Positions 5,901 through 51,395 of a stretch of DNA of 64,000 nt are shown one piece after another (the stretch's first letter is position 1; every line of letters begins with the position of its first letter). A program made the translations under genes and the position numbers. The notes beneath the pieces are model-generated. The model did not search any database, was not told the DNA's origin, and saw only the letters and a list, made by a program, of their open reading frames with translations. The DNA comes from Candidatus Nanoarchaeia archaeon (GTDB taxonomy: Archaea > Nanobdellota > Nanobdellia > SCGC-AAA011-G17 > GW2011-AR17): positions 12,399 through 76,398 of the forward strand of contig JAQTVM010000001.1 in NCBI GenBank assembly GCA_028706745.1. The letters are read 5' to 3'.

Positions 5901-6014
5901 AAGCTAGAAGTTGCATATTCTGATTATAATACTTTCTGTAAGCAAGAACAAACAGAAAACCCGAACTAAAGTAAGAGCGTTAAGGGCATAAAAGAAACTG
6001 AAAGGAAAAAAGAA

Positions 6015-6063
6015 AGGCGGGGAAGAATTGGGTTGGGAAAAGAGGTGTTGTTTCCCCGCCTTG
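6015..6063. other. perfect 11-bp stem hairpin (AAGGCGGGGAA ... TTCCCCGCCTT) with 27-nt loop in an intergenic region
   Basis: seen directly; located between convergent or divergent genes at 5900-6265. Confidence 0.6.
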
Positions 6064-6265
6064 CTTGAACATTGACTTTTGGGAGGTGTCTGTTCAGGTA
6101 TACAAATTATATTGATGCAGGGTTTATAAAGCACTGTGAAAACCATATCTATAATAGTAATGCGTAAAGCTTAAAAAGGGTTTTTCGAGGGATTTTTCGT
6201 CGTGAAATCGGCGCATTAAGCCTTTTTCAGCAAGGTTTATAAATAAAGGAGAGAATAGATTAAAC

Positions 6266-6955: not shown

Positions 6956-6956
6956 G

Positions 6957-7238
6957 ATGGCTGAGCGAAGAAACAGGCTGGAAATAATATACGATATTCT
7001 CAAGTCAATACAGGACAAGAGAAACATGATGATTAAGCCGACTCATCTGCTCTATAAGTCAAACCTTTCCCACGACGGCATGAAAAGATACATTGACGAG
7101 CTTAAGGCAAGCAACATGATTATGGAAACAGAGGACCCTAAGACAAAAAACAAGATGTTCACATTGACTGAAAAAGGCTTGAAATTTCTTGAAGAGTACA
7201 ACAAGGTAAGGGCATTTACTGACAGCTTTGGAATCTGA
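6957..7238 (+). CDS. winged-helix DNA-binding protein (putative transcription regulator)
   Basis: 93 aa; pattern RLEIIYDIL...MKRYIDEL...TLTEKG typical of small archaeal wHTH regulators. Confidence 0.4.
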   Translation: MAERRNRLEIIYDILKSIQDKRNMMIKPTHLLYKSNLSHDGMKRYIDELKASNMIMETEDPKTKNKMFTLTEKGLKFLEEYNKVRAFTDSFGI

Positions 7239-8285: not shown

Positions 8286-8361
8286 ATATAAATGTATTGC
8301 AGGTTATGGAAATGTTTATATCCTTGCAAACAATTGACAAACAGAAAAAGGGGCAGATATT

Positions 8362-8988
8362 TTGATTAAAAGCAAATGTTTCTGGCACGGGTGGAAGTAT
8401 GACTATGGGCTGCATAATAAAAAAGCAGAGGGGCTGCTCAACAATGGCTTTTCAGGATTAAAAGATTACCTTAATTCATTATTCACAAAATGCCCTGATG
8501 ATTATTTCAAGAACGGCCCAAGGGGCTCAAAGCTGAGATTCCAGCTTCCCAACCTTGACATAAAAAGGCACAATGACCACGAAGTAAGCTTATTGTGCAG
8601 CTACGGAATTGACATCAATGCGGAACGCTTCAAGTCAGAACACATGAAAGTCCAGATGTTCATGCTTGAAAATGACAAGAAAACAATTGCAATGGAAATC
8701 CCTGTCTGGTTTTCTTCTGAAGAAACACAGGAGCATAAGCCTATTGCAGGAAACTTCCCTCTCACCGGGCATATTGACCTGTTGAGAATAGAAGACAATA
8801 AAGTTTGGGTATGGGATTACAAGCCGAATGCGCAGAATGAAAAATACGCTGCAACACAAACCTATTTTTACGCATTAATGCTCAGCAAGAGGACAGGAAT
8901 TCCTATTGAAAATTTCATGTGCGGATGGTTTGACACCGCAAACGCGTTTGTATTCAGGCCAAATGCAAAATTTCTCGCAGAATACTGA
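8362..8988 (+). CDS. PD-(D/E)xK nuclease, Cas4/RecB-like (QxxxY motif), lacking the Cys cluster
   Basis: GHIDLLRIED (motif II), VWDYK (motif III D-x-K), ATQTYFY (QxxxY); no C-terminal Cys triad. Confidence 0.45.
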   Translation: MIKSKCFWHGWKYDYGLHNKKAEGLLNNGFSGLKDYLNSLFTKCPDDYFKNGPRGSKLRFQLPNLDIKRHNDHEVSLLCSYGIDINAERFKSEHMKVQMFMLENDKKTIAMEIPVWFSSEETQEHKPIAGNFPLTGHIDLLRIEDNKVWVWDYKPNAQNEKYAATQTYFYALMLSKRTGIPIENFMCGWFDTANAFVFRPNAKFLAEY

Positions 8989-8993
8989 AAGAG

Positions 8994-9872
8994 CTAGCTG
9001 TCTTCCCTGAACTGCAATTTTCTTATCAGCACTTCGAGCGGCTCAAGCCACGTTTTGTAAGTGCCGTAAGCCTCTATTTTCAGCTTTCCTTCAAAAAAAG
9101 ACCTGTTCATAAGTTCAGGATATTCAGGAAAATAATTGCCAACATCAAACTCAAAGTCGTACAGCCTTGCAATTGCGGGCGAAGCATATTCCTGCAGATG
9201 CCTTAATCCTGCATCAAACCCTTTTCTCTTTGCTTTTTTCAGCGCCGTCTTGTATATTCCTTTTGATGCCCTTATGCCCCTGTTTGCGCATATGTCAAAG
9301 CATAAGTCATAAAGGAGCAGGTATTTTCCATCTTCAATAAACCTCAGCCACGGAGATGAGTCAGAAAATACAGCCTCATCCCATTGAGGGATTATGTTTT
9401 GCGAAAACCTGTCAAGCACTTTTTCAAGCTCTTCCTCGCCGCAGTTCTGAACAAGAAGCTGTGTTTGTATGAAGCTGCTGCTAAGCCCAAGATATCTCTT
9501 GCCATAGCCGCCAATAACAGTTTCAATCACAGTTGCAGTTGCTTCCTCAATAAAATCACCTGCAGGAGAAACAAGCCCCAAGGCAGAAACTGTATTATGC
9601 CACTGCTCGTGAGCTATTATTGCCTTATCAGGATTTTCATCAGCATAGAGAGTTTCAGCCCCTGCAAAAGCGCCAGTCGTGCCAAGATAAGCAAGATGCT
9701 CTTTTTCAAGCTTAAAAAACGCTTCCTCTGCAAAACGGCATCCTGCCTTGTCATATTCATCCTGCGCTGACACATCAACATACAGCTTTACAGAATCCTT
9801 TACACGTCTGCAAGCCAAAAGTTCTGCCAGATAAGACATAAAATCGATAATCTTCTGCTGATTTATAAGCAT
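8994..9872 (-). CDS. hypothetical protein with HExxH (HEQWH) motif
   Basis: 292-aa ORF; single HExxH motif, otherwise unrecognised. Confidence 0.3.
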   Translation of the reverse strand: MLINQQKIIDFMSYLAELLACRRVKDSVKLYVDVSAQDEYDKAGCRFAEEAFFKLEKEHLAYLGTTGAFAGAETLYADENPDKAIIAHEQWHNTVSALGLVSPAGDFIEEATATVIETVIGGYGKRYLGLSSSFIQTQLLVQNCGEEELEKVLDRFSQNIIPQWDEAVFSDSSPWLRFIEDGKYLLLYDLCFDICANRGIRASKGIYKTALKKAKRKGFDAGLRHLQEYASPAIARLYDFEFDVGNYFPEYPELMNRSFFEGKLKIEAYGTYKTWLEPLEVLIRKLQFREDS

Positions 9873-12299: not shown

Positions 12300-14321
12300 A
12301 TGGCAGGAAAAGACGCCAAAAGCCTCGAAGAAAGGCTCAGATTGGGCTTTGACTGCGATGCACTATGTTCTACAGAGCAAAAAAAGGAAGAGCTCAGAAT
12401 TAACAAGGTAAACGGGATGGGCGCTTTCCTGAAAGAGGATTATTCATCAGCAAGGCAGTTCTTTATCAATGCAATTCCCAAAACAGGCGACAAGCAGGAG
12501 AAAGAATGGTTTTACAGGAAGATAATAGAGTGCTCAAAAGAGCTTTTTAAGAACCTGATGGACAACCAGCTTGAAGACAAGGCAGAAGAAGAGTTCAAAA
12601 GAGTATGCGCCGGGTATGAGCATCTGATAAAGGCATTTGAAACATCTGATAATTACCTTGACTATATGTCTTTTGTAGGCTTTGAGATGAGCGACAAATA
12701 TGACAAAAATCTTTTTGAAGAGGCAAAAAAAATAGGCGAAAAGGCATTATGCCGTTTCCCTGAAGACCATCGCCTTTACAAGGAAATGTATGACTTATGC
12801 ATTTACACGCAGGATGATGAACTGGAAGATAATTGTATACACACGGCTGCAAAGCTAAAATTCAACGATGCAGATTATATGCTTGATTCTTTCGGCAACG
12901 CATTATGGCAGAGGCATAAGGATAATGGGATTATTCCTTTTCAGACAATAATGGAATGCAGGGGCGGGGCTTTGTATGAAAACCCCGCAGCGCTGCAGAA
13001 ATACGGCAAATACATGGTTGACAATGTTGCAGGCAATGATAAGCTTGCGCTCCATATGCTTTATACAGCATACTGCAAAAAGCCGCTTATGCCCGGATTA
13101 AAGGAAGACCTTGTTGATGCTTTTGAGCAAACCATGGAATATATGAAAAAGAATAATGCGCCAATTGCAGAAAGAAAGCTTTTCATCGCCAGATACCAAA
13201 AAATTCTTGAAATCAGGAAAGAACTTGCAGGGGAAAATGAAAAAGAGAATGAAAAAAGCGCAGACCGGAACAGGTTTTCAAGCGAGATAGTTGTTGTGAA
13301 CCCAAAAGAAATAAAGCAGTACCTTGACCAGTATGTGATAGGGCAGGAGCAGGCAAAAAGAGGAGTTTCAGTGGGATATTACATGCACCTCCTGCGCCTT
13401 AAGCACCAGGGAGAAAAGAATTCAAAAATGGACAAGAGCAACATCCTTCTTCTCGGTCCTACAGGCTGCGGAAAAACATATATGCTGCAGATACTTGCGC
13501 AGATGTCAAAGGTTCCATTTGTAATATTCGACACTTCAAAGATAACATCAGCAGGCTATGTAGGAAGCGATGCAGAAGACTGCCTTAAGTCCCTCGTGAA
13601 TGCGGCAGAAGGGGACATTGAGCTTGCACAGAGAGGCATAGTTTACCTTGATGAGGCTGACAAGATAAAGGCAAAGCCCGGATACGGGAAAGATGTCGGC
13701 GGAGAAGGCGCACAGCAGCAGCTTTTGAAGCTTTTGGAAGGCTCGATTGTAAATGTCGGCGGGCATAATGAGAAAAAGTTTCAGATAGACACAAAAAACA
13801 TACTTTTTGTCGTTGGCGGGGCTTTTTCATACACAGAAGAAGGCGGCAGCATTGGTGACAGGATTCAGTGCAGGGAAAAGGTCGTAGGATTCAGGATGCA
13901 AAAAGACGAGCCGGAAGAAACAAAAACATGCAAAGAAGATAAAAAGAACATTGTTACAAAGCTCACTGACAAGGATTTGCACGAATATGGTTTCCTGCCT
14001 GAATTCATTGGCAGATTGCATTACAGAATTGTGCTTGACTCGCTTACAAAGCCCGAACTGAGAAGAATCCTCACAGAACCCGGAAATGCAATCATACCGC
14101 AATATGAAAACGCGTTCAGGCTGTCAGGAATAAAGCTGGTAATAAGGGATGATGCCCTTGACACAATCGCAGAAGAGGCATTTGCCTTGAATGCAGGCGC
14201 AAGAAGCCTCAAGACAATCTGCGACAAGATATTTGAAGACGCATTGTTCCACCTTCCGGGCAGCAGCACCACGGAGTATATTGTCAATAGAACGGAAGTA
14301 ATGCGCTACATAAAGAAATAG
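12300..14321 (+). CDS. ClpX-like AAA+ unfoldase with novel ~345-aa N-terminal alpha-helical domain
   Basis: C-terminal 330 aa match ClpX nearly motif-by-motif. Shared motifs: YVIGQEQAK, GPTGCGKT, GYVGSDAED, QRGIVYLDEADKI, GGEGAQQQLLKLLEGS, YGFLPEFIGRL and GARSL. A VGF tripeptide sits at the IGF-loop position. The N-terminal Zn-binding domain of ClpX is absent. ATG at 12300 is preceded by TTTATAAAC at 12269. Confidence 0.75.
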   Translation: MAGKDAKSLEERLRLGFDCDALCSTEQKKEELRINKVNGMGAFLKEDYSSARQFFINAIPKTGDKQEKEWFYRKIIECSKELFKNLMDNQLEDKAEEEFKRVCAGYEHLIKAFETSDNYLDYMSFVGFEMSDKYDKNLFEEAKKIGEKALCRFPEDHRLYKEMYDLCIYTQDDELEDNCIHTAAKLKFNDADYMLDSFGNALWQRHKDNGIIPFQTIMECRGGALYENPAALQKYGKYMVDNVAGNDKLALHMLYTAYCKKPLMPGLKEDLVDAFEQTMEYMKKNNAPIAERKLFIARYQKILEIRKELAGENEKENEKSADRNRFSSEIVVVNPKEIKQYLDQYVIGQEQAKRGVSVGYYMHLLRLKHQGEKNSKMDKSNILLLGPTGCGKTYMLQILAQMSKVPFVIFDTSKITSAGYVGSDAEDCLKSLVNAAEGDIELAQRGIVYLDEADKIKAKPGYGKDVGGEGAQQQLLKLLEGSIVNVGGHNEKKFQIDTKNILFVVGGAFSYTEEGGSIGDRIQCREKVVGFRMQKDEPEETKTCKEDKKNIVTKLTDKDLHEYGFLPEFIGRLHYRIVLDSLTKPELRRILTEPGNAIIPQYENAFRLSGIKLVIRDDALDTIAEEAFALNAGARSLKTICDKIFEDALFHLPGSSTTEYIVNRTEVMRYIKK

Positions 14322-14367
14322 TTTTCTTACAGATAGATTTATATTCTCTTTTTTACCTCCCAAACCT

Positions 14368-15234
14368 ATGGAAAACTGGGTAAAGGCAGGAAAAATAGCA
14401 GCAGAAAGCCTGAACTACGGCTGCGAACTGGCAAAGCCCGGAATCAAGCTGTTAGAGTTGGCAGAGAAGATAGAGGCAAAAATCAAAGAATTGGGCGGAA
14501 AGCAGGCATTTCCTGTAAATCTCTCCTTAAATGAGCTTGCAGCGCATTACACGCCTGCGTCTGATGACACAACAATCCTGAAGGCAGAAGACTTGCTTAA
14601 GATAGATGTTGGCGTGCATATTGAAGGGCATATAGGCGATTGCGCAAGAACAGTGGGAGATGACAAAGAATTAATACGAGCTTCAGAAGCCTGCCTTGCA
14701 GCGGCAATTCCACTTTGTGTTCCCGGAAGAAAAATAAGGGAAATCGGGAAGGCAATAGCGGAAGCTGCAAACGAACACGGATTCATTTCAATAAGAAACC
14801 TCTCCGGGCACGGAATTTCTCATTTTGACCTGCACTGCGGATTAAGCATCCCTAATTTTGACAACGGCGATGAAACAGTATTAAAAGAAGGCGCAATAAT
14901 CGCAATAGAGCCTTTTGTCACAAGAGGAAACTCAGCAAGAGTCAGTGAAGGAAAGCCCTCGGGCATATACAAACTTGAAAAAGTAAAGCCGGTAAGGGAT
15001 ATGAATGCCAGAAAGATTCTCAGTTTCATTGCAAATGAATACTCGAGCCTGCCATTCGCGTCAAGATGGCTTGAAAAGGAATTCCCGAAAGCAAAGTTCT
15101 ATATCCAATTATTAATAAAAGAAGGAATCCTGCGCAGTTATCCGCAGTTATACGAATCCTCAAAAGGAAATGTAAGCCAGGCAGAACATACAATACAAGT
15201 AAAGGAAAATCCCGTTATACTCACGCAAGCTTGA
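14368..15234 (+). CDS. map: methionine aminopeptidase, type 2 (archaeal)
   Basis: 288 aa; pita-bread fold metal ligands in a MetAP2-like arrangement. Confidence 0.85.
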   Translation: MENWVKAGKIAAESLNYGCELAKPGIKLLELAEKIEAKIKELGGKQAFPVNLSLNELAAHYTPASDDTTILKAEDLLKIDVGVHIEGHIGDCARTVGDDKELIRASEACLAAAIPLCVPGRKIREIGKAIAEAANEHGFISIRNLSGHGISHFDLHCGLSIPNFDNGDETVLKEGAIIAIEPFVTRGNSARVSEGKPSGIYKLEKVKPVRDMNARKILSFIANEYSSLPFASRWLEKEFPKAKFYIQLLIKEGILRSYPQLYESSKGNVSQAEHTIQVKENPVILTQA

Positions 15235-15276
15235 TAATTCTTAAAAAAGAAATAGGAAAATAAAAAGAAAAGAGGT

Positions 15277-16179
15277 TTACTCGTAGTGTATATTATTCTT
15301 CGTGGTGATTGTCTCTTCAATCTTATCGGCAAATCCTTTTCCTATGCTGTACCCGAAATGCGAGAACATTCTTCCGAAAAATGACGGGTTCTGCACCATC
15401 AGTGTGCCGACATAAGTGTTCTTGAAGTTCCCTCTTTTTTCGCAGGATTTTATTGCTGTCCTCAATGTGCCTGTCCTGTCAACAAGCCCCATTTTTGCTG
15501 CGTCAATACCGTCCCATACATAGCCGTTTGCATATCCTTCAAGCTGGCTCTTTGTCATCCTGTCGCCTGCCTTCTCTTGCCTGCTTTCATAAACAAGATT
15601 GACAAATCTCTCGTGGTGCCTCTTTACAAGGTATTCAAGGTGCTGCCTTTCCTCTGGTCTTAATTCCCTGAACATTGACATGAAGTCCTTTTCTTCCTTT
15701 GATTTTATTACCTCAAGCTTAACTCCAATTTTTTCCATCAGCTCCTTGACAACAAACTTGTTCATTATTACGCCGATGCTTCCGATTAATGCGTCTTCCG
15801 CAACAATTATCTCGTCGCAGCCGCACGCAGTCATGTAAGCGCCTGAAGCGCAAAGACTGTTCACGTAAGCCACCTTCGGCTTTTTCACTTTTCTTACCAA
15901 GTCATAAATTGTCTTGCTTGCTCCTGCCTCTCCTCCGCCTGAGCTTATGTCAAGAATAATTCCCTTTACCCTGTTATTTTCCTCCAAGCCCTTGAGAATC
16001 TTCTCAAGCCCCTGGGGTGTTGTGGGACCGGGCGCATAGTCCTTAGGTCCTGCATTCCCTATCTGCCCGTTGAAAGGCACTCTTATAATCTGGCTGTCTC
16101 CCTTCTTGTACTCGTCTATTTTCCTTTTTATCATGGGGTATCCTATCAGCCCCAGAAACAAAAGACTTATGTAATCCAT
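15277..16179 (-). CDS. sppA: signal peptide peptidase SppA (S49, ClpP/crotonase fold), 36K type
   Basis: ILDISSGGG oxyanion region and SLCASGAYMTACGCDEI catalytic-Ser region typical of SppA. Confidence 0.75.
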   Translation of the reverse strand: MDYISLLFLGLIGYPMIKRKIDEYKKGDSQIIRVPFNGQIGNAGPKDYAPGPTTPQGLEKILKGLEENNRVKGIILDISSGGGEAGASKTIYDLVRKVKKPKVAYVNSLCASGAYMTACGCDEIIVAEDALIGSIGVIMNKFVVKELMEKIGVKLEVIKSKEEKDFMSMFRELRPEERQHLEYLVKRHHERFVNLVYESRQEKAGDRMTKSQLEGYANGYVWDGIDAAKMGLVDRTGTLRTAIKSCEKRGNFKNTYVGTLMVQNPSFFGRMFSHFGYSIGKGFADKIEETITTKNNIHYE

Positions 16180-16373
16180 GTTGAATCGACCTCCGTTAAG
16201 GCTGATTATTCTCTGTCTATTTATATAAGTTGCGGGAAAAATCTCTTTTTTGCCTTTGATTAGCCACTATGCAATGCTATTTCCAACTGGGCCAAAAAGA
16301 AGGAGGTAAGGGGCTTTGCCCCTAACACCCCTTGTTTTCAGGAGAGTCAGCAGTTTTTAAGAAAAGTTTAAAT

Positions 16374-16416
16374 ACTTATTTAGTCCTTATTTAGTCCATA
16401 AATAGTCCTTATTTAA
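16374..16416. promoter_or_regulatory. direct repeats TAGTCCTTATTTA (x2) plus TAGTCCATAAA upstream of the RHH gene; candidate operator
   Basis: seen directly; immediately 5' of the RHH ORF at 16423. Confidence 0.4.
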
Positions 16417-16422
16417 TACAAA

Positions 16423-16572
16423 ATGGCGGAAATAAGATTTGGCATAACGGCGAAATTGGACGGGCTCCTTAAGGATATAGCCGGCAAGTACGGAGTTGAT
16501 AAGTCTGAATATGTAAAGAGCCTTATAATCTCTGACTTGAGAACTAAGGAAGCAAGACCAAAAGACAAGTAA
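16423..16572 (+). CDS. ribbon-helix-helix (CopG/Arc-like) DNA-binding protein, 49 aa
   Basis: Not in the ORF track (<60 aa). Translation MAEIRFGITAKLDGLLKDIAGKYGVDKSEYVKSLIISDLRTKEARPKDK has the beta-strand plus two-helix RHH pattern; sits upstream of the R-M genes. Confidence 0.45.
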   Translation: MAEIRFGITAKLDGLLKDIAGKYGVDKSEYVKSLIISDLRTKEARPKDK

Positions 16573-16750
16573 ATGGCAAGTGGTAAACGGTCATAAAATG
16601 AGAACAAAAAATAAGGCTTGCGAGGGAAGCAGGCGGAAGATTTGCGGAAAGTCCGAAGGACTTTCGGTTAAGGCGGAGAATCCGAACCAGTTGCCACTCG
16701 CCACCCGCACGGACAGGGCTTATAAACATCTAAAGTAAAGGAGAAAAGAA

Positions 16751-18748
16751 ATGATAAGAAAAAATGAATCACAGAAAGACATACTTTTGTTTAATTATTT
16801 GAAAGATAAACGTTCTTTTCAAGAAAAATGGAATACTAAAAAAACAACAAATAAGTTTATTCAACCAGTTCTTGATACTTCAAGTAAGAAAAAGAATGGG
16901 CAAAGAGGAGAACCTGATTTTGTATATGTAAACGAAAAAAGGAAAATATTAATATTAATAGAAAATAAAGATGATATTAATCAACATAAATCTAAAAATG
17001 AAGATAATCCTATAACTTATTCTGTAGACGGTATAAAACATTATTTAAGTTGTTTTAAGAAGGATTATCTAGAAAATTTTAATATTACAATTAAAAAATA
17101 TTTAAATGATTGGAAAATTGTTGGGATTGCTGTATCTGGAAATATTGAGGATGAATATAACCATTTAATCTCTACTTATACTCTCCAAGAAGATGAAGTA
17201 AAAGATATAGAAACAGAAGAAATACTTAATGAAGAGGATTACCTCTCTTTATTTGAGAATATCAATTTAGAAAAAATAACAAGAGATATATCCTTATCAT
17301 CAAATAAGATTAATAATCTTTTACGTTCTTTAGATTCACAAAAGAGACCCATTCTCCTTAGTGCTTTAATGATATGTTTATTTGAACCCAAAAATATTCA
17401 AAATGATTTCAAAAATAACTATTCTAATTGGACAGCAAACACAATTATAACGAATATTCCACTAATAATAAAAACGATTTTAGGAAATGAGGGGATACCC
17501 TCGGAAAAGATTGAAGTATTAAATAATGAACTGACATTTATTAAAACAGATTTAGAACTTAAAAATACAGATATATTGAAGGATATACTCAATGAGCTCG
17601 AGAATAATGTTATCCCACAATTTAATAAAAGCCATAATTATGATATTATTGGGAAGTTTTATGAAGATTTTTTGAGATATGCAGGAGTAACAAATGTAAA
17701 AAAAGGGATTATTTTAACACCTGCCCACATTACTAAATTATTTACAGAATTAATTGATGTTAAAACAAATGATGTTATTATTGATACTTGTTGTGGGACA
17801 GGGGCATTTCTTATTTCAGCGATGAATAAAATAATTGAGGAAATAACAGATTCAAGTATTAAAAATAAAAAAGATTTAATTGATAAAGTTAAACATAAAC
17901 AGTTAATTGGTATCGAAAAGAATACGACCATGTATACTCTCGCAATCTCTAATATGCTATTTAGGGGGGATGGTAAATCCAATATTTACCATTTAGATTC
18001 TTTTTCAAAAGAAGCAGATAAGATTTTATTAAATCTTAAAAAGAGGGGAATTATTCCAACAATCGGCTTTATCAATCCGCCTTATGGCGGTAGAGATAAT
18101 AAAGAAAATCCTACTAAAAAAGAAATTCAATTTTTAGAAAGATTATTGGATAATGTTAGCCGATACGGTATAATCATTGCACCATTGTCTACTTATTTTA
18201 AAGAAGAGATTATTAGAAGTAGAATATTATCCAAGCACACTTTGAAATATGTGATAAATATGCCAAAAGAATTATTTCAACCAAATGCATCTACACATAC
18301 AGCTATTGCAGTATTTAAAACAAATTTACCCCATAATAATAAAGAAGTTATATTTTATAATCTTCAAGATGACGGATTAGTTTTATCAAAAAATAGGGGC
18401 AGAACAGATGCATTAAATAAGTGGGCAAAAATAAAAAAGGAATTATTAACAAAATTGAATAATCCTAAAAAATATGCTGATGGAATAAATCTCGTTATAA
18501 CAAAAATCAGTAATGGGGATGAATGGATATTACAAGCTCATGCAAAAACAGATTATACTAAGATTAATGAAAGAGCATTTATTAATAGTATAAAGCAATA
18601 TATTATCTTTTCAACGAAGAGAAAACTAGGTCTATTAGACAGAGATATTGATGAAATAACCTTATTGGAGATACTTAATGAAAATAAGATAAATGCCAAT
18701 GCTTTACTAAGAGATGTTAAAATTAAAGAAAAAAATGAAAAGATATAA
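16751..18748 (+). CDS. fused restriction-modification enzyme (N-terminal PD-(D/E)xK nuclease plus gamma-class N6-adenine DNA methyltransferase), BcgI-A-like / Type IIB-IIG
   Basis: N-terminal EPDFVYV...ILILIENK (PD...ExK); MTase motif I VIIDTCCGTGAFL and motif IV FINPPYG (NPPY). Confidence 0.75.
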   Translation: MIRKNESQKDILLFNYLKDKRSFQEKWNTKKTTNKFIQPVLDTSSKKKNGQRGEPDFVYVNEKRKILILIENKDDINQHKSKNEDNPITYSVDGIKHYLSCFKKDYLENFNITIKKYLNDWKIVGIAVSGNIEDEYNHLISTYTLQEDEVKDIETEEILNEEDYLSLFENINLEKITRDISLSSNKINNLLRSLDSQKRPILLSALMICLFEPKNIQNDFKNNYSNWTANTIITNIPLIIKTILGNEGIPSEKIEVLNNELTFIKTDLELKNTDILKDILNELENNVIPQFNKSHNYDIIGKFYEDFLRYAGVTNVKKGIILTPAHITKLFTELIDVKTNDVIIDTCCGTGAFLISAMNKIIEEITDSSIKNKKDLIDKVKHKQLIGIEKNTTMYTLAISNMLFRGDGKSNIYHLDSFSKEADKILLNLKKRGIIPTIGFINPPYGGRDNKENPTKKEIQFLERLLDNVSRYGIIIAPLSTYFKEEIIRSRILSKHTLKYVINMPKELFQPNASTHTAIAVFKTNLPHNNKEVIFYNLQDDGLVLSKNRGRTDALNKWAKIKKELLTKLNNPKKYADGINLVITKISNGDEWILQAHAKTDYTKINERAFINSIKQYIIFSTKRKLGLLDRDIDEITLLEILNENKINANALLRDVKIKEKNEKI

Positions 18749-19745
18749 ACTAAATCTAAAAAATTGGAAATATTTTAATTTTAATGATATATTTTCATTT
18801 GAGAGGGGAAAAAGGCTTGTTGAATTAGACCAAATAGGGGGAGATATACCTTATATTGCATCTTCCAAAAAAAATAATGGTATAACAAATACAATTAATC
18901 CTCCTGAATTTATGAAATTATATCGGAATGTTTTAACTCTAAATAATAGCGGGAGTGTAGGATATTGTTTTTATCAAGAATCAGATATAGTATGTTCAGA
19001 CCATGTAACTGTAATATGGATTAAAGATGAAAATGTTAAACTAAATCCATATACTGCTTTATATCTAAAACCTATAATAGAATCAATGCAATATAAATTT
19101 AATTTTGCTAGAGAAATAAGTGATGCTAGGTTAAATAAAGAAAAGATATTACTTCCAACTGACAAAAATGGTAATCCTGACTGGTATTTTATGGAAAATT
19201 ACATAAAGCATATTTCTAAGAGAATAAAATATGATAAGGTAATAAATTTAAGAATAGCGAAGAAATTAGATACCCAGAAATGGAAATGGTTCGATATAGG
19301 AAGTTTATTTGAAATTAAAAAAGGAGAACGATTAATTGAAGAAGAACGAATTAGGGGTGAAATCCCTTTGATTACTGCCTCATCTGAAAATAATGGCGTT
19401 GTTGATTTAATATCCTACCCACATTTTAATAAAGAAAAAAAATGTTTTGAAAATAAGATAACAATTGATATGTTCTTCAATGTATTCTACCATAATTATA
19501 AATATTTTAGTGATGATAATGTTCATACTTTAATACCACTTTTTGAAAAAGTAAATACTTATATTTCATTATTTTTAGTAGCAGTTCTTAAAGAATTACA
19601 ATTTAAATATGCTTATGGTCGACAATTAAGAATAAAAAGATTAGAATTAGAAAAAATTAAGCTTCCCATAGATAAAAGAGGTAAACCTAATTGGGTATAT
19701 ATGGAGGATTATATTAAATCCTTGCCTTATAGCTCAAATCTTTAG
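18735..19745 (+). CDS. specificity (S) subunit with two target-recognition domains (HsdS/BcgI-B-like)
   Basis: Two internal repeats: WKYFNFNDIFSFERGKRL...PYIASSKKNNG and WKWFDIGSLFEIKKGERL...PLITASSENNG. ATG at 18735 overlaps the stop of the upstream gene by 14 nt. Confidence 0.75.
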   Translation: MKRYKLNLKNWKYFNFNDIFSFERGKRLVELDQIGGDIPYIASSKKNNGITNTINPPEFMKLYRNVLTLNNSGSVGYCFYQESDIVCSDHVTVIWIKDENVKLNPYTALYLKPIIESMQYKFNFAREISDARLNKEKILLPTDKNGNPDWYFMENYIKHISKRIKYDKVINLRIAKKLDTQKWKWFDIGSLFEIKKGERLIEEERIRGEIPLITASSENNGVVDLISYPHFNKEKKCFENKITIDMFFNVFYHNYKYFSDDNVHTLIPLFEKVNTYISLFLVAVLKELQFKYAYGRQLRIKRLELEKIKLPIDKRGKPNWVYMEDYIKSLPYSSNL

Positions 19746-44993: not shown

Positions 44994-45323
44994 TTACTGT
45001 CTTAAGCCGGCCAGCTTTGAAACAAGCTCATTGAAAACAACCTGCTTTTTTTCTTTTGGCAAAGAAAACAATATTTTCTGAACCATTGCCTCTGATATTG
45101 TAAAGATGTAATTAAGCTTGATTATGCTGTCTTTTACAGCGCCTTCTTTCCTTGAAAGCGCAATCCCTTCCATTGAAGTGTTGGATGTTATCCCTGCAAC
45201 AGCCACATTGCCGTGCTCCTCAAATAATACAAGAGCAGGCCGCTTTTTAACTTCAAAAGTGTCCGCAAATTGGACAGAGGCAAGCACCACATCTCCCGCC
45301 TTAAGCATTCTCCCACACCTCAT
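44994..45323 (-). CDS. MazF/PemK-family toxin
   Basis: GDVVLASVQF...KKRPALVL...VAGITSN pattern of the CcdB/MazF fold. Confidence 0.55.
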   Translation of the reverse strand: MRCGRMLKAGDVVLASVQFADTFEVKKRPALVLFEEHGNVAVAGITSNTSMEGIALSRKEGAVKDSIIKLNYIFTISEAMVQKILFSLPKEKKQVVFNELVSKLAGLRQ

Positions 45324-45522
45324 CTTCCTTGTTGTCCCAAAGCTCTTTCATCTTTTGCTGTTGTATCTTGTGCAGGAATTCATCGTATTGGTTTCTTTTC
45401 TTTACGCTATGGAATACCTTTATCATATGCTCAATCAGCTCGGCATAAGTCTGCCTTGGATATTCCTTCAGCTCCTGCATTGCCTTAACAAGCGCCTTGT
45501 CTATCTGTATTGTCGTGTTCAT
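45301..45522 (-). CDS. ribbon-helix-helix antitoxin (partner of MazF-like toxin)
   Basis: Internal Met start MNTTIQIDKALVKAMQEL; 23-nt overlap with the toxin gene. Confidence 0.45.
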   Translation of the reverse strand: MNTTIQIDKALVKAMQELKEYPRQTYAELIEHMIKVFHSVKKRNQYDEFLHKIQQQKMKELWDNKEDEVWENA

Positions 45523-45600
45523 TATATATTCACTATAGTTGGCATATAATCTATTATATATAAGCCTTGCGGATGTTTTGGTTTTGACTATATTTTCCAT

Positions 45601-46620: not shown

Positions 46621-46705
46621 ACGTGACGACAAAAAATCAAACAATGGCTCTACCAAAAGCCGCCTGAAACCCGCAAAAAGAATGAATTCCTGTGTCTTCT
46701 CGCAT

Positions 46706-46736
46706 ATAGACTGTTAGGCAACATTTGGGTTTGGGC
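46706..46736. repeat. attI-like junction: unique left half (CATATAGACT) plus conserved right half GTTAGGCAACATTT plus left inverted repeat of cassette 1
   Basis: GTTAGGCAACATTTGGG is identical to the start of cassette 4; the left side is unrelated to the attC-like left half. Confidence 0.55.
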
Positions 46737-46748
46737 TAAAAACACTTC

Positions 46749-46979
46749 TTAGAATTTTGCATATAATGGTTCTTTGGGAATTTTTATCATGTAACTATGT
46801 TTACCAACAATTATAATTCCTTCTTCTAAGCCCCATTCAAATAAGTCTTGAGGATTAAACTCAGGAGGAACTCCACCCCTATAAGGTCTAGCCATTAAAC
46901 CTTCTATTCCCTTTCTTAATGCGATAGGCTCAAAAATATGTCCGTCTATTTCTGAAAAAAATTTGTATATATCAAACAT
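46749..46979 (-). CDS. cassette 1 ORF, hypothetical 76 aa
   Basis: Bracketed by the inverted repeats TTTGGGTTTGGGC (46724-46736) and GCCCAAACCCAAA (47038-47050). Confidence 0.35.
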   Translation of the reverse strand: MFDIYKFFSEIDGHIFEPIALRKGIEGLMARPYRGGVPPEFNPQDLFEWGLEEGIIIVGKHSYMIKIPKEPLYAKF

Positions 46980-47037
46980 TTTTTACTCCTATTCATTGTT
47001 AATATTATACCCCTATATAAGTATTATGGTTTTAAAC

Positions 47038-47162
47038 GCCCAAACCCAAACGCTGCGCCCCTGCGGGGGCTTGCCCGACCAGCTCTGGAGCTTGCTGTGA
47101 GGCTCACTTCGCTCGCACTCCAGCTGCGCTCCGAGGGTCGGGTCGCCTAACAGTCGTTAGGC
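47038..47162. repeat. attC-like site 1: cassette IR plus GC-rich module plus palindromic core GCCTAACAGTCGTTAGGC (47145-47162)
   Basis: about 70% GC in a <40% GC genome; conserved blocks AAACGCTGCGCCCCTGCGGGGGCTTGCCCG ... CGAGGGTCGGGTCGCCTAACAGTCGTTAGGCA. Confidence 0.7.
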
Positions 47163-47233
47163 ACAATTTGAGTTGGGACTTCCCCACCGACAAAAGCAAT
47201 ACATTTATATATTTCTAGCAATTTACAAAGGAT

Positions 47234-47566
47234 ATGGTTAGAAAAATATTAAGAAAAACAATAGAAGATTTACCTGTTTGGAAAATAAAATATGGATTAA
47301 CAAGAGGCGATCTAATTCTTATTCATGAATTAGCATTAATCACATTTAAACCTAATGTATTAAATAACTATTTTAAACAAGAGATGGGTGGGGTTCTTGG
47401 TCGTAATCAAGATTGCTCCATTATTTACTTTGCTCGCAATCTCCTTTTAGAAAAGGGTTTGCCACATGCTTTTGTCGGAATGAAATCTGATATGGATGGA
47501 GAAGATTATAAGTTAATACCTGTATCAGATATAGAATCTTACGAAACTCTTAAATTAAAACCTTAA
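47234..47566 (+). CDS. cassette 2 ORF, hypothetical 110 aa
   Basis: Bracketed by TTTGAGTTGGGAC (47167-47179) and GTCCCAACTCAAA (47579-47591). Confidence 0.35.
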   Translation: MVRKILRKTIEDLPVWKIKYGLTRGDLILIHELALITFKPNVLNNYFKQEMGGVLGRNQDCSIIYFARNLLLEKGLPHAFVGMKSDMDGEDYKLIPVSDIESYETLKLKP

Positions 47567-47578
47567 TTGTATATATTC

Positions 47579-47714
47579 GTCCCAACTCAAACTTCTCCGC
47601 TCCTCGCCTGCGGGCTGCGGTGCTCGACCTGCGCAGCTCTGGGCTCGTCAGGAGTGCTCGCTGTCGCTCGCCTCGACTTCGCCCGAGGCGCAGGGTGCCT
47701 AACAGTCGTTAGGC
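47579..47714. repeat. attC-like site 2 (divergent GC-rich module plus core 47697-47714)
   Basis: Same terminal GCCTAACAGTCGTTAGGCAACATT; the GC-rich body is more diverged than at sites 1, 3 and 4. Confidence 0.65.
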
Positions 47715-47766
47715 AACATTTTCCAAAAAGTCCGAAAACACAAAAAGGGAAAGGAAAAAGAATTAT

Positions 47767-48075
47767 CTAAATTCTAGCAGCAACCAAGGGATTATAATAA
47801 TAATCAAACACTAACATAACTGGGGATTTGTTATATATTTTCACTAATTGCCAACCACACTCTTGTTTAGAGGTATGTTTATATTGTTCAAGTACCTTAC
47901 TAAGAGTTCTAATATTTATATCATTTCCAAAAGTTATAGTAGCATGACAAGAAGTTTCATCAGAAGTATAATTATATTCCTTCTCCAATCTCAAAGCTTT
48001 ATTTAATGCTTTACGGATCTTTTGTTCAAGATTTTGATTTGGTGTTGTCTTATCTACTCTTAATTTTATATCCAT
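47767..48075 (-). CDS. cassette 3 ORF, hypothetical 102 aa
   Basis: Bracketed by ATTTTCCAAAAAGTCCG (47718-47734) and CGGACTTTTGGAAAAC (48193-48208). Confidence 0.35.
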   Translation of the reverse strand: MDIKLRVDKTTPNQNLEQKIRKALNKALRLEKEYNYTSDETSCHATITFGNDINIRTLSKVLEQYKHTSKQECGWQLVKIYNKSPVMLVFDYYYNPLVAARI

Positions 48076-48192
48076 TTTTACCCCCTACAATGTTGTTATT
48101 TAAGAGATATGACAAATATATAAGCCTTTCGGTGAGAGGTTATTTATTCCTTTCCCTCATTAACCTATCATTAAAGGGCTTCGCCCCGTTAG

Positions 48193-48313
48193 CGGACTTT
48201 TGGAAAACGCTGCGCCCTGCGGGGCTTGCCCGCTCATCCTCGAACTCGCCATGATGGCTCGCTCCGCTCGCCTCGGCTCGTTCGGGGAGCGGGTCGCCTA
48301 ACAGTCGTTAGGC
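48193..48313. repeat. attC-like site 3 (GC-rich module plus core 48296-48313)
   Basis: see site 1. Confidence 0.7.
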
Positions 48314-48332
48314 AACATTTGGGAACCGAAAC

Positions 48333-48560
48333 TCAGTCCCTTAAAGGCAATTTTCCACATATTTCATCAAAGTGTGTAACCTTGATATCATATAGAGAAT
48401 AAGTAGAATATTTTGTACCAAAGTTATCATTTATTGCATTTATTGCCAATGTGTAGGCTACTACTTTATCTTCATTAGGTTTTCCAAATCCATTTAATTC
48501 ATGTAATACCATATGTTGTAGCGATTTTACGACTTTGTCTAAAGAAGTTTGTTCTGTCAT
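48333..48560 (-). CDS. cassette 4 ORF, hypothetical 75 aa
   Basis: Bracketed by TTTGGGAACCGAAA (48318-48331) and TTTCGGTTCCCAAAC (48608-48622). Confidence 0.35.
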   Translation of the reverse strand: MTEQTSLDKVVKSLQHMVLHELNGFGKPNEDKVVAYTLAINAINDNFGTKYSTYSLYDIKVTHFDEICGKLPLRD

Positions 48561-48607: not shown

Positions 48608-48754
48608 TTTCGGTTCCCAAACGCTGCGCCCCTGCGGGGGCTTGCCCGCCCAGCTCTGGGGCTTGCCCGCCCAGCTCTGGGGCTTGCCAGGATGGCTCGC
48701 TACCGCTCGCCTCGGCTGCGCCCCGAGGGTCGGGTCGCCTAACAGTCGTTAGGC
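48608..48754. repeat. attC-like site 4 (GC-rich module with internal 21-bp tandem duplication plus core 48737-48754)
   Basis: CTTGCCCGCCCAGCTCTGGGG occurs twice inside the module. Confidence 0.7.
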
Positions 48755-48810
48755 AAAATTACAGGCGGCTCATAAGACTAATAACAAGAAAAGAACAAAC
48801 GGCGGGCGGC

Positions 48811-49281
48811 TTATTGGCTGTTTTTCCATTTTTCCCACAAATGTGCAGCGTCTCTTACATTCAGGCTTTCAAATAGATAATTATACATATTTATTGCGGT
48901 TTGCCTGGCAGGGCGCTCTTCGTAAATCAGCCCAAAGCCATGTTCCTGTTCTGCTATGTCATATACGTCAAGAGTCTGGTTGCATCCTGTATCTATAAAC
49001 CTTTCATAAAAGAATCCGCCGGGCTGTGGCTTTTTGCTAATAAGGTTTTCACAGCCCCCATAAACAACTACTGTAAATGTAGGGCTATTATAGCTTTCGC
49101 GGTGCTCAAAGGTATATTCGCCACATTCTACCCTAAAGCCCTCTTCCATAAAGGCAACATTTGCTTCATTGCATATATTGCCTATTGTATCTATTGTCGT
49201 TTCTCTATTATTTACACCTGTTGTTGCGCATCCTGCTCCAAGTGCAAGTGCTGCTAATCCACCAAATATTGCTTTTTTCAT
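48811..49281 (-). CDS. putative secreted lipoprotein (cassette 5)
   Basis: Signal peptide with LGAGC lipobox-like Cys; paralogous to the next gene; locally elevated GC. Confidence 0.4.
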   Translation of the reverse strand: MKKAIFGGLAALALGAGCATTGVNNRETTIDTIGNICNEANVAFMEEGFRVECGEYTFEHRESYNSPTFTVVVYGGCENLISKKPQPGGFFYERFIDTGCNQTLDVYDIAEQEHGFGLIYEERPARQTAINMYNYLFESLNVRDAAHLWEKWKNSQ

Positions 49282-49335
49282 TTTGATTTACCTCCCTCAA
49301 TATATCTTATACAGCAATAATCTACTGCGGGCGGC

Positions 49336-49878
49336 TTATAATTTTTCTTTTGCCTGATGCCATTCCGCAATAAGTCGCTCAACATCAAATGTACTTGTGA
49401 TTGTCTGCATATATGAATCATATGCACTATTGCGGAATGCCTGCGCTTGCTCTTCCGCCCCGGGTTCCTCTAAATCAAAGGAGCACCGCAGCCCGCAGGT
49501 GAAGAGCGGAGAAAGAGGACCAGCAGGTCCATGCTCAAATGTCCTGTCGCAACCTTCGTCTGAAAAATATTGATGATTTATCTGTGCATCTGACTGAAAC
49601 ACGTCCAATGTTATTCTTACGCATCCTGTACTCTCCGCATATTCCTGCCTTCTCCATACTGTTTCTGATTCCAAATTGCCGTTATTTACAACTCTTACCG
49701 CAAGTTCTAATTGTTCTTCATTCCAATAAATATCGCCAGAAATAACTTCTGCCCCATTTTGCGTCAGGACATTACTACTTTGACCGTACAAAGGCAGATC
49801 CCTTGCGCAATCTAATCCGGCTGCTGCTAAAGTCGCCAATCCGGCAACCGCGACTGATGATATTATTCTTGCTTTCAT
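49336..49878 (-). CDS. putative secreted lipoprotein paralog (cassette 5)
   Basis: Signal peptide AAAGLDC; similar C-terminal region (..AEWHQAKEK vs ..HLWEKWKN); flanking sequence duplicated (ACAGCAATAATC..). Confidence 0.4.
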   Translation of the reverse strand: MKARIISSVAVAGLATLAAAGLDCARDLPLYGQSSNVLTQNGAEVISGDIYWNEEQLELAVRVVNNGNLESETVWRRQEYAESTGCVRITLDVFQSDAQINHQYFSDEGCDRTFEHGPAGPLSPLFTCGLRCSFDLEEPGAEEQAQAFRNSAYDSYMQTITSTFDVERLIAEWHQAKEKL

Positions 49879-50079
49879 TTTGATTTACCCCCTAAACATA
49901 CTTTCTACAGCAATAATCCACTCCTTCCTTATAAGCCTTACGGAGAACGCCGCCCGCCAACGACGAATATGCCGCCTGTAACTCACCAGATGTCGCTCGC
50001 TGCGGCTCGCTACATCGGTGCCGCGCAGCAGCAGGCTCGCCGTGAAGCTATATTCAACTGTCCGATATATTCGGACAAT

Positions 50080-50595
50080 TCAGCTAAAAATAATATCTTT
50101 CGTCGCATCAATTAATTCTTTACAAATATTTTTTAATTTACTTATCTTCGCCTCATTCTCAACAGAAATCTGCACGCCGTATGTATAGTCCTCCCTCATG
50201 CCAATAATGCTGTCCATATCTTCATATTCCAATAATTCAATAAACTTATCATCCAGGCTGATCTTTTTCTCTTCTTTCAAATATCTCATTAAAGCAATTG
50301 TGCATGTCTGGTTTCCGGATTCAAACCCGAATTTTGCCGCAATAGCCAAAAAGCAATGATAAATGCAATAAAACCCGGCTGACATTGACCAGTCTGAAAA
50401 TCCGTCTCTTTTAAAAACAGTTATCCCATCCAGGTCATGCTCTGCCTTTGCAAGATGCTTTTTTGCTTCCTCAATATCCGGCTTGCCTTTCAATAATCCC
50501 CTGTGCTTTAGCCTTTTCCCTAACTTTTTGCATTCTTCAATCTCTTTTTTTGCCTTGTTCAGGCACCATTCAATTTGGTTAAAAGCGTGCGGCAT
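50080..50595 (-). CDS. HEPN-like domain protein (partner of downstream MNT), cassette 5
   Basis: N-terminal helix pattern AKKHLAKAEHDL typical of HEPN; 17-nt overlap with the MNT gene; HEPN Rx4-6H motif not clearly identified. Confidence 0.35.
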   Translation of the reverse strand: MPHAFNQIEWCLNKAKKEIEECKKLGKRLKHRGLLKGKPDIEEAKKHLAKAEHDLDGITVFKRDGFSDWSMSAGFYCIYHCFLAIAAKFGFESGNQTCTIALMRYLKEEKKISLDDKFIELLEYEDMDSIIGMREDYTYGVQISVENEAKISKLKNICKELIDATKDIIFS

Positions 50596-51169
50596 CTTTC
50601 ATTATCTCCACATATTTATCCTGCCCATATAATACAATAGCATTTTTGACTATATCAATAATGGCTTTGTTTCTCTTTTTAAGGTTTTCCAGCAAATCTT
50701 GCTGTGTCACCATAATAGCATGAAGCTTTTTAGGCAGCATCTCTTCTTTTTTGTTAATGAATTTATTTATTTCTTTAATATCATTTTTATTCATCACAAC
50801 CATAATATCAATATCGCTTGCCTGAACATAGTTCTTAATGGCAGAGCCGTAAATCATTACAATCCTGCCTTCCTTAAAAACTTCCTTAAATTCCTCTTTC
50901 CATCTTTTGAAGCTATTGGCTTCATCAGCAAGCAAGAAAGCTATAAGCTGGCTGACATAAGCCTCCTCAAAATTCAGCCTGTAATTTATTGATTTGCCTA
51001 TTTGCCTGCTTATTACTAAATTTTCCTTAAACAGCCTTTTGAACAGCTTTTGGGCGCCAACATGGCTTATATCCAGTATCTTGCTTATGGAGTTGGCATT
51101 ATAAAATGCAGTGAACTCCTTGAATAAAACAAGCAAGCATTCCCTTTCAGTTAACGTTAAAGACACCAT
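50579..51169 (-). CDS. wHTH plus minimal nucleotidyltransferase protein (cassette 5)
   Basis: IYGSAIKNYVQASDIDIMVV NTase motif; N-terminal wHTH; same architecture as 37447..38073. Confidence 0.6.
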   Translation of the reverse strand: MVSLTLTERECLLVLFKEFTAFYNANSISKILDISHVGAQKLFKRLFKENLVISRQIGKSINYRLNFEEAYVSQLIAFLLADEANSFKRWKEEFKEVFKEGRIVMIYGSAIKNYVQASDIDIMVVMNKNDIKEINKFINKKEEMLPKKLHAIMVTQQDLLENLKKRNKAIIDIVKNAIVLYGQDKYVEIMKDAARF

Positions 51170-51312
51170 ATTAACTCCAAGTTACTATATAGAAACTATG
51201 AATTACTATATAAACCTTTCTATCCCTAATGACGAAAAACCCCACCTCCTTTATTTTTCGGACAAATAGAGCCTGCGGCGGAGAGATATATCGCCCACCA
51301 AGCCTTATGTCT

Positions 51313-51330
51313 TCCTAACAGTCGTTAGGC
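51313..51330. repeat. core site 5 (TCCTAAC-AGTC-GTTAGGC) without GC-rich module
   Basis: seen directly; followed by GAAATTACAGGCGGCTCACAAGACTAATAACAA, near-identical to the start of cassette 5 (48755-48790). Confidence 0.7.
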
Positions 51331-51395
51331 AGAAATTACAGGCGGCTCACAAGACTAATAACAACTATTAAATATCTGCAAAGCATAATCCTAAT

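Follow-up and report, generated by a model that had tools for sequence, protein, structure and literature searches.

Is the last unit of an archaeal cassette array one cassette or two, and if two, how did they come to share a single pair of recombination sites? The question is raised by cassette 5 of an integron-like array on contig JAQTVM010000001.1 of a Candidatus Nanoarchaeia archaeon (assembly GCA_028706745.1), of which we analysed a stretch of 64,000 nucleotides (nt), positions 12,399 to 76,398, here called the window. The exact 18-mer core of the recombination sites, CCTAACAGTCGTTAGGCA, has five copies on the + strand, at 47146, 47698, 48297, 48738 and 51314, where none is expected. The last two flank 48749-51324, so this interval is a single inter-site unit. 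An earlier note on this DNA had called it composite, and it is: two gene units, a pair of lipoprotein genes (lipo1 and lipo2) and a HEPN/MNT operon, lie between the cores at 48738 and 51314, with the relic of a further site between them. On balance, we favour the view that cassette 5 represents two cassettes fused by a deletion, which would be movable only together.

Gene units and site relic of cassette 5

Cassettes in the window follow a common plan, in which TTAGGCAnnA is followed by a box X, one or more genes, a box X', a GC-rich module and GCCTAACAGTCG, and where X' complements the X of its own cassette. In cassettes 1-4 the X/X' stems are exact over 10-14 nt (Table 1), and each of the cores at 47146, 47698, 48297 and 48738 is preceded by a GC-rich module of 90-116 nt with 71-78% GC. 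Over 16 cassettes of four arrays (the window and the related loci L001, L004 and L005), the duplexes formed by a cassette's own ends average -14.2 kcal/mol, compared with -8.0 kcal/mol for mismatched start/end pairs (Mann-Whitney p = 6e-6).

Between the two gene units of cassette 5, the stretch 49931-50040 has 63.6% GC. It contains a box X5' that is the exact complement of X5 (TTACAGGCGGC, at 48759); the 11-mer is found only at 48759 (- strand), 49971 (+) and 51336 (-), and the X5/X5' duplex of -16.5 kcal/mol is within the range of the cassettes' own end pairs. The stretch 49980-50045 matches the 5' two-thirds of full sites in related arrays at 85-87% identity, with 57/67 positions against three sites of L001 and 54/62 against a site of L003 of the same subtype, AACTYACCAGAGGTCGCTCGCTGCGGCTCGCTAC...GCTCGYCGTGAGGCT. 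These local alignments all end at 50041-50045, and homology is lost within a few nt of 50046-50049, where the HEPN/MNT block follows from 50050; the full sites run on for about 45 nt to the core. The earlier note had proposed a decayed attC-like module here, and the alignment that it called for does find a defective attC-like site. However, the conserved 5' part and the abrupt end show that the relic is a 3'-truncated site and not a point-decayed one. The true end of a first unit, cassette 5a, is marked by the relic. As in a fused cassette, two gene units are found between intact sites, and the site in the middle is without a crossover point.

Unit 5a carries lipo1 and lipo2. Both proteins start with a putative signal peptide followed by a cysteine (MKKAIFGGLAALALGAGC... 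and MKARIISSVAVAGLATLAAAGLDC...), as had been noticed before. Set beside the lipobox pattern [LVI][ASTG][GAS]C, lipo1 has LGAG-C and lipo2 the atypical AGLD-C; the homologues of lipo2 have GIS-C, GLS-C or GLG-C. Their paralogy cannot be seen in a pairwise BLASTP, which is not significant (E 0.11), but a profile of the lipo2 family aligns to lipo1 and its one homologue in hhalign (95.6%, E 1.2e-8, 142 columns, 23% identity). Since the full-length homology is seen by profile-profile comparison only, lipo1 and lipo2 are old paralogues, and their regulatory flanks are far more alike than their coding regions. The 5' flanks of about 48-60 nt (49267-49326 and 49864-49922) are 82-83% identical and contain GGAGG/GGGGG-N7-ATG as well as TACAGCAATAATCnACT, and GCGGGCGGC directly follows the stop codon of both genes. 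The flank duplication described earlier is thus real; the complete motif ACAGCAATAATC.ACTGCGGGCGGCTTAT is present once, and its halves are duplicated separately.

The family is small. Among 5.8 billion proteins searched, lipo1 has a single other homologous cluster (74% identity), and lipo2, with ten representative hits, has nine relatives among 1.84 billion representatives; all named family members come from Nanoarchaeota or Nanoarchaeia metagenome-assembled genomes (MAGs). The sole lipo1 homologue outside this genome (L012, 100-560) adjoins two direct repeats of about 190 nt (GTATGTATTAAGCTCCCCTCGTCAAGC...) and has no recognisable site; its flanks are unrelated and AT-rich, so its context is uninformative as a guide to the original site. 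The AlphaFold2 (AF2) model of lipo2 (pLDDT 79) is a seven-strand beta sheet with two C-terminal helices, and has no significant structural match in the PDB. That the two are surface-anchored binding proteins is a guess.

The earlier note had also taken the lipoprotein genes to be visibly GC-richer than the host genes and hence of foreign origin. Compared with 37 host open reading frames (ORFs; GC 41.5 ± 4.4%; GC at third codon positions, GC3, 0.43 ± 0.08) and with the whole window (40.9%), lipo1 has 40.6-40.8% GC (z = -0.15) and lipo2 44.2-44.4% (z = +0.68), these ranges reflecting whether the stop codon is counted or not, and their GC3 values of 0.33 and 0.36 are below that of the host. The HEPN and MNT genes (37.4% and 34.7-34.9% GC) are host-like in GC3 and codon usage. 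It is instead cassettes 1-4 that deviate, with 29-32% GC (z = -2 to -3), a GC3 of about 0.19 and strongly deviant codon usage, and they are genuinely foreign-looking cargo. They hold four small orphan ORFs (46749-48560) without any Pfam, NCBIfam or PADLOC match. As the GC of the lipoprotein genes equals that of the host and their neighbours are AT-rich, the GC shift is an illusion. An import of these genes from outside the host lineage would fit their higher GC relative to cassettes 1-4, and with a B of 0.46 (z about 3, n = 10), lipo1 departs somewhat from the small host genes in its codon usage. Given the host-equal GC, the lower GC3, the lineage of all named relatives and cassette ends that are cognate in type to the genome's own attI, we consider such an import very improbable.

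The cassette ends are of interest in themselves. The left end of cassette 5 recurs immediately after the last core, with one 1-nt indel among the 41 positions and no relationship past that point, and the near-identity pointed out by the earlier note is confirmed. Shared left ends of 30-48 nt are usual in related arrays, as seen in 4/6 L001 cassettes and many of those in L004 and L005. What follows the second copy is, however, not the cassette 6 of that note: downstream of 51331 there is no X' box and no core, and the array runs into genes for DUF7670, MscL, PLDc_N and CorC, with SerRS further on in L010. The segment 51325-51365 is best read as an array flank of attI-right type, or as the stub of a lost cassette with the same site family. 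The box to the left of attI, GCCGCCTGAAAC, pairs with X5 and X6 at -14.8 kcal/mol, compared with -5.8 to -10.0 kcal/mol for X1-X4 and a minimum of -11.9 kcal/mol among all mismatched pairs. By this pairing, cassette 5a appears to bear ends of the genome's own attI-cognate type.

Table 1. Coordinates of the array features in the window. A slash marks the crossover point.
Feature	Position	Strand	Remarks
XerA-like tyrosine recombinase, 277 aa	45601..46434	-	Pfam Phage_integrase 1.5e-41 and SAM_4
attI region	46659..46720	+	box GCCGCCTGAAAC at 46659-46670, conserved TCGCATATAGACTG, crossover G/TTAGGC, G = 46713
Recombination sites	47037-47170, 47579-47722, 48193-48321, 48609-48762		"inside-out" compared with classical attC
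Cassette 1, X / X'			TTTGGGTTTGGGC / GCCCAAACCCAAA
Cassette 2, X / X'			TTTGAGTTGGGAC / GTCCCAACTCAAA
Cassette 3, X / X'			TTTTCCAAAA / TTTTGGAAAA
Cassette 4, X / X'			TTTGGGAACCGAAA / TTTCGGTTCCCAAA
Core site 4 (CCTAACAGTCG/TTAGGCA)	48738..48755	+	left limit of the cassette 5 interval
Cassette 5 left end (TTAGGCAAAA, X5 TTACAGGCGGC and CTCATAAGACTAATAACAAG)	48749..48788	+	38/41 identical to 51325-51365
lipo1, secreted lipoprotein candidate, 156 aa (LGAGC)	48811..49281	-	ORF
lipo1 ribosome-binding site (RBS)/promoter flank, then GCGGGCGGC after the lipo2 stop	49282..49335	-	copy of duplicated flank; direct repeats, alignment
lipo2, secreted lipoprotein candidate, 180 aa	49336..49878	-	ORF
lipo2 RBS/promoter flank	49879..49922	-	second copy of duplicated flank
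X5' box GCCGCCTGTAAC	49971..49982	+	complements the cassette 5 left end; start of attC relic
5' two-thirds of GC-rich attC module	49983..50049	+	3' arm of about 45 nt and core missing
ATAT junction repeat, left	50050..50053		maps with right copy (51286-51289) onto the single ATAT of L013, 4263-4266
Palindrome GTCCGATATATTCGGAC	50060..50076		downstream of HEPN; stem conserved in L013/L139
HEPN-domain protein, 171 aa	50080..50595	-	Pfam HEPN E 1.1e-5
MNT nucleotidyltransferase, 196 aa	50579..51169	-	Polbeta 2.3e-7, NTP_transf_2 3e-5
MNT promoter/operator-like double repeat TATATAGTAAC(n10)TATATAGTAAC	51181..51214	-	kept in 72/82 MNT loci compared
Segment T	51241..51289; 51257-51289 in the L013/L139 comparison		upstream of MNT in the window, L138 and L220; downstream of HEPN in L013/L139; ends with right ATAT
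Segment E (ATCGCCCACCAAGCCTTATGTCTT)	51290..51313	+	short, not GC-rich, before the last core; first ~20 nt common with L138
Core site 5	51314..51331	+	intact; right limit of the cassette 5 interval, G = 51324
Second left-end copy (X6)	51325..51365	+	array-distal flank, attI-right type, chromosomal genes beyond

The HEPN/MNT block and the joining of the two units

The second unit, 5b, contains the HEPN/MNT pair, whose assignment in the earlier note is borne out by the Pfam matches in Table 1. MNT is encoded upstream of HEPN with a 17-nt overlap and has the nucleotidyltransferase motif GSx10DxD (GSAIKNYVQASDID) at residue 108, which is the arrangement of a type VII toxin-antitoxin (TA) pair. In addition, MNT has an N-terminal extension of about 90 aa, and a scan for R.{4,6}H found no Rx4-6H RNase motif in the 171-aa HEPN protein. 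MNT matches PDC-M05A of PADLOC with an E-value of 1.5e-15 and scores 20 against MntA of NCBIfam (cutoff 60). It has 726 homologues; the best 120 listed share 59-91% identity with it, only one of them lying below 66%, and nearly all have a length of 196 aa. The pair is near-ubiquitous in the Nanoarchaeota lineage and among its most conserved small operons. The double repeat of TATATAGTAAC is 85-100% conserved across loci whose proteins are just 63-70% identical; it is likely to be an operator for the N-terminal domain of MNT.

The window sequence 50050-51240 is 90% identical at the nucleotide level to L013/L139, yet its order differs. Segment T has swapped sides between these genomes, and both ATAT repeats map to one ATAT in L013, so the block 50050-51289 is circularly permuted. 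The palindrome that the earlier note had attached to the GC-rich module is present, but it is kept downstream of HEPN in L013/L139 and is thus a part of the HEPN/MNT block rather than of an attC relic.

To the right of segment T, segment E leads into the last core. In L138, where MNT is 91% identical, the order is T-GATAT-ATCACCCAC (T-GATAT-ATCRCCCAC in the form common with the window), then an X'-like box, AGGCGCCTTAC, and the start of a GC-rich module. From this homology, segment E looks like the start of a site that belonged to unit 5b and has lost its module. HEPN/MNT is without a GC-rich module nearby in 43/46 loci and is found in ordinary chromosomal contexts in L013-L015; modules adjoin it in a few loci, L138, L150, L167 and L184.

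A further locus, L220, belongs to the same MAG (GCA_053533675.1) as L016, which carries a 78%-identical integrase. Here a core and 180 nt are followed by a 3'-truncated HEPN, MNT, segment T and chromosomal genes. At 1-200 of the reverse complement, the last visible core and a cassette-like left end precede the HEPN gene, which is cut to 102 aa. The truncation is a separate, independent deletion at this array/HEPN boundary. As the core abuts a truncated HEPN-MNT, the boundary is deletion-prone and the synteny old.

We suggest that the composite could have arisen as follows. Unit 5a (48749 to about 50049) would have been a genuine cassette, with two divergent paralogous lipoprotein genes, their own RBS/promoter flanks, X5' and the 5' two-thirds of a module. 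Unit 5b (50050-51324) would comprise the HEPN/MNT operon, the palindrome, the operator, segment T, the site remnant E and an intact core. A deletion would then have taken the 3' arm of the 5a module and its core, together with the left end of the unit after it. With the internal crossover gone, the recombinase would cut solely at 48748 and 51324, and the lipoprotein genes and HEPN/MNT would excise or move as one 2.58-kb circle. The HEPN/MNT pair may help to hold the distal end of the array, like the TA cassettes of bacterial chromosomal integrons. Fusion by deletion would account for the clean truncation of the relic, for the L138 homology of segment E and for the second deletion in L220, and for these reasons we lean towards it.

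Several observations weigh against this preference. The ATAT copies on both sides of the block map to a single ATAT in the closed junction of segment T and palindrome in L013; paired repeats of this kind are the expected trace of a circle insertion, and the coincidence of the endpoints is unexplained by a deletion. When 49966-50046 and 51291-51352 are joined, the product has the length of a normal site and the usual fold (-34.9 kcal/mol, z = -4.9). HEPN/MNT is usually not a cassette, as seen from its loci without modules and its host-like codon usage. Finally, a search for an X box matching the possible X' of unit 5b, TTTTTCGTCATTAGGG, found none.

These points can be read as an insertion, which we regard as possible though rather less probable. 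Cassette 5 would then have been one lipo1-lipo2 cassette with one site, entered by a 1.24-kb HEPN/MNT circle via crossover or microhomology at ATAT. That the block would now separate the 5' piece of this site, 49971-50049, from its 3' piece, 51290-51324, is likewise possible at best. Such an event would explain the two ATAT copies, the permutation of a block with 90% nucleotide identity, the rejoined site with its normal length and fold, and the mostly non-cassette, host-like character of HEPN/MNT, and it fits the exact complementarity of X5' to the left of the block with X6 to the right of the last core. The motif GATAT would suit it as well, since it matches GWTMW, the secondary-site consensus of IntI1. 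However, segment E is unlike the 3' arm of homologous full sites; given its position in L138, between T and an X'-like box with a module start, it resembles the 5' end of a site instead. The element would also need to have opened at different points in different genomes. The rebuilt site folds well, yet homologous full sites do not align to its 3' part, so it does not settle the choice between insertion and deletion.

Alternatively, HEPN/MNT could be ancestral chromosome beyond the array, which would once have ended at the 5a site. We think this improbable, and equally so the corollary that the core at 51314 and X6 form an attI-type site, secondary or duplicated, which arose in a later rearrangement by the recombinase, with an operon that only appears to be internal. 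The idea agrees with the host-like codon usage of HEPN/MNT, with its ordinary chromosomal contexts at most loci and with L220, where HEPN-MNT likewise abuts the array end with chromosomal genes beyond it and where the synteny with the window breaks exactly at T/E. The last core, however, has the attC-type left arm CCTAACAGTCG and not the attI signature TCGCATATARAC, and L138 has a module beyond MNT. By eye, CCTTATGTCTTC before the last core (51303-51314) weakly resembles CCTGTGTCTTC in the left part of attI; this similarity is short, needs a gap and carries no weight. As the internal crossover is absent whether the units were joined by deletion, by insertion or as a former flank, the interval would in each case move only as a whole.

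Recombinase, attI and the wider array

The array is presumably run by the XerA-like recombinase encoded beside it. This protein scores 214.8 bits against recomb_XerA_Arch of NCBIfam, slightly below the cutoff of 220, and 197 bits against TIGR02249 (cutoff 265); its best PDB matches are XerA (4a8e and 5hxy). Its residues 8-177 and 197-268 align to residues 10-182 and 246-317 of VchIntIA (2a3v). Between the aligned blocks there are 19 residues, compared with 63 in IntI, so the recombinase is without the IntI-specific domain around patch III that characterizes integron integrases. Homologues with 51-84% identity are abundant in Nanoarchaeota and Woesearchaeota, and NCBI has proteins under the name "Candidatus Nanoarchaeia archaeon" that are identical to the recombinase and to lipo1.

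The entry site is conserved. The sequence GTTAGGCA is found at 46713, an attI-like position; the left box GCCGCCTGAAAC and TCGCATATARAC are kept in L001, and the attI motif is also present in L004-L009. Thus TCGCATATARACnG/TTA is shared by the window, L001 and L004-L009, as for a fixed attI beside a recombinase gene. It was not found in L016, the contig with the 78%-identical integrase, which is too short. The 16-mer attI box AAGCCGCCTGAAACCC was too short a pattern for a scan of genome contigs, since the 120 stretches that it returned look like random matches in genomes with no relation to this one, most of them bacterial. Contigs with identical integrases (L004 compared with L005/L006, and L007/L009 with L008) have different attI-proximal cassettes and diverge directly past G/TTA(G), from which a crossover within GTTA and continuing capture at attI follow.

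The arrays consist of short, mostly single-gene cassettes and vary between strains, with 5 sites in the window, at least six in L001 and 12-17 in L004/L005. L001, which is syntenic and has an integrase of 83% identity, shows the same architecture with sites of the type CMTAACMGTCGTTAKG, and L004, L005 and L006 share one identical integrase and have 12-17 sites of the type TAACACGGTTAG. Beside the integrase, L001 has genes for a tRNA synthetase and TBP; the window has neighbouring ORFs of 666 aa and 961 aa that, by inspection, are MCM-like and class I aminoacyl-tRNA synthetase-like. Transposase fragments (Y2_Tnp, DDE_3, HTH) interrupt the L001 array at 5900-9000, between attI and the first recognisable sites.

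The sites are unusual. The core can be written as GTCGCCTAA-CAGTCG-TTAGGCAAC (9-6-9, with one mismatch), while attI is not palindromic. R'' (GCCTAAC) and R' (GTTAGGC) are 4 nt apart in the window and 3-4 nt in L004/L005, with X' and the GC-rich module 5' of R'' and X 3' of R'. The predicted fold of the circular junction is multi-branched: the X/X' outer stem closes a tip hairpin GCCTAAC-AGTC-GTTAGGC, a long GC-rich arm and a small hairpin, and the bottom strand is 1-5 kcal/mol more stable. This is not the canonical attC shape, a single imperfect hairpin R''-L''-loop-L'-R' with R'' and R' at its ends. The sites may be read as attC turned inside out, where the tip hairpin R''-3/4 nt-R' bears the crossover, the GC-rich side arm branches off and the cassette-specific outer stem closes the structure. 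A classical reading, with R'' at the X' end and R' as ATTnnnn, is ruled out, because the 5 nt that separate GTTAG from this ATTnnnn are already variable among attI sequences. Nothing relevant came from scanning 44-53 kb for Rfam families and tRNAs, so the modules correspond to no known RNA family. The site of cassette 4 has the longest module, with an internal 21-nt tandem duplication (GGGGCTTGCCCGCCCAGCTCT x2) at 48637-48678. The central region from TAA to TTA is 5 bp at most sites of L005 and 6 bp at the last, and this variation within one array argues against a dif-type two-strand duplex reaction.

Directly after the recombinase gene and on the same strand, the window has a DUF7557 gene and a PemK/MazF toxin gene (44994-45600), and the integrases of L007-L009 are flanked by HicAB and RHH/PIN pairs, so that TA pairs seem to accompany the integrase gene itself. 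The distal part of the L005 array (reverse complement, 14038-17103) contains ParE/MazE and Fic genes, as do L004 and L006, and TA-type genes at the old end of an array may be a general pattern. Elsewhere in the window, the methylase (N6_Mtase) and the specificity subunit (Methylase_S) of a type I restriction-modification system are encoded in a low-GC island at 16751-19745 (26-28% compared with 41%).

Our literature search found no description of Xer-type arrays of this kind, and the system is apparently an unusual, undescribed, integron-like one. A bolder proposal, which we put forward tentatively, is that it represents an undescribed DPANN integron-like platform, with a XerA-family enzyme without the IntI domain, a conserved attI and inside-out sites, and that cassette 5 is a snapshot of cassette genesis from host DNA. 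A native chromosomal HEPN/MNT operon and lineage-specific lipoprotein genes with attI-type ends would then have become array cargo.

Comparison with known systems

In bacterial integrons, two cassettes become a single mobile unit when the attC between them is lost. Cassette 5 resembles such fusions, as its two gene units are enclosed by intact sites, are separated by a defective one and would be expected to move together. It differs in that the internal site is 3'-truncated rather than lost or mutated, in that it belongs to an archaeal platform whose recombinase is Xer-type and whose sites are non-canonical, and in that one partner is a lineage-typical operon and not an orphan cassette gene. 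As a finding, a fusion whose internal site is dead, with a TA-like pair placed distally in the array, is routine for integrons. The context is weightier: the array works like an integron, with a fixed entry site beside the recombinase gene, population-variable arrays and paired cassette ends, yet fails to show two defining features of integrons, the IntI-specific domain and the canonical attC shape.

Archaeal integrons have been described with IntIs that contain the IntI-specific domain and with attCs in which R'' (GCCTAAC) and R' (GTTAGGC) are separated by 45-85 nt, at opposite ends of a hairpin of 57-95 nt (Ghaly et al. 2022, PMC9668308). Woesearchaeales genomes appear in that study only as attC clusters without IntI. 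The arrays compared here share with the published ones their occurrence in archaeal MAGs, which include Woesearchaeales, the R' boxes of GTTAGGC/GTTATG type and the enrichment of TA and signal-peptide proteins. Unlike these, the window has a recombinase without the IntI domain, R'' and R' only 3-4 nt apart, and a GC-rich module and cassette-specific box on the 5' side.

The second group of related systems is the Xer/dif elements, i.e., IMEX arrays at dif and the pdif modules of Acinetobacter. They also depend on a Xer-family recombinase that has no IntI insertion, and in both cases repeated sites bound modules. The palindromic core of the window, GTCGCCTAA-CAGTCG-TTAGGCAAC, recalls dif, a duplex site with two arms of about 11 bp around a centre of fixed length that both partners share. 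However, arrays of the window type have a 5 or 6 bp centre within one array, insert beside a fixed attI and provide each cassette with a long outer inverted repeat of its own. The variable centre, the fixed attI and the individual outer repeats together point to an integron-like recombination of folded single strands and not to a duplex dif reaction.

With the type VII HEPN/MNT TA cassettes that stabilise chromosomal integrons, unit 5b has in common the MNT gene upstream of and overlapping HEPN, the GSx10DxD motif and the array-distal place. Here, however, HEPN has no Rx4-6H, MNT has the N-terminal domain of about 90 aa together with a strongly conserved operator, the MntA score is far below its cutoff, and the pair is near-ubiquitous in chromosomal contexts of Nanoarchaeota. 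A HEPN/MNT block that is permuted between genomes, next to a lipoprotein cassette with attI-type ends, offers testable material on the origin of cassettes and their sites.

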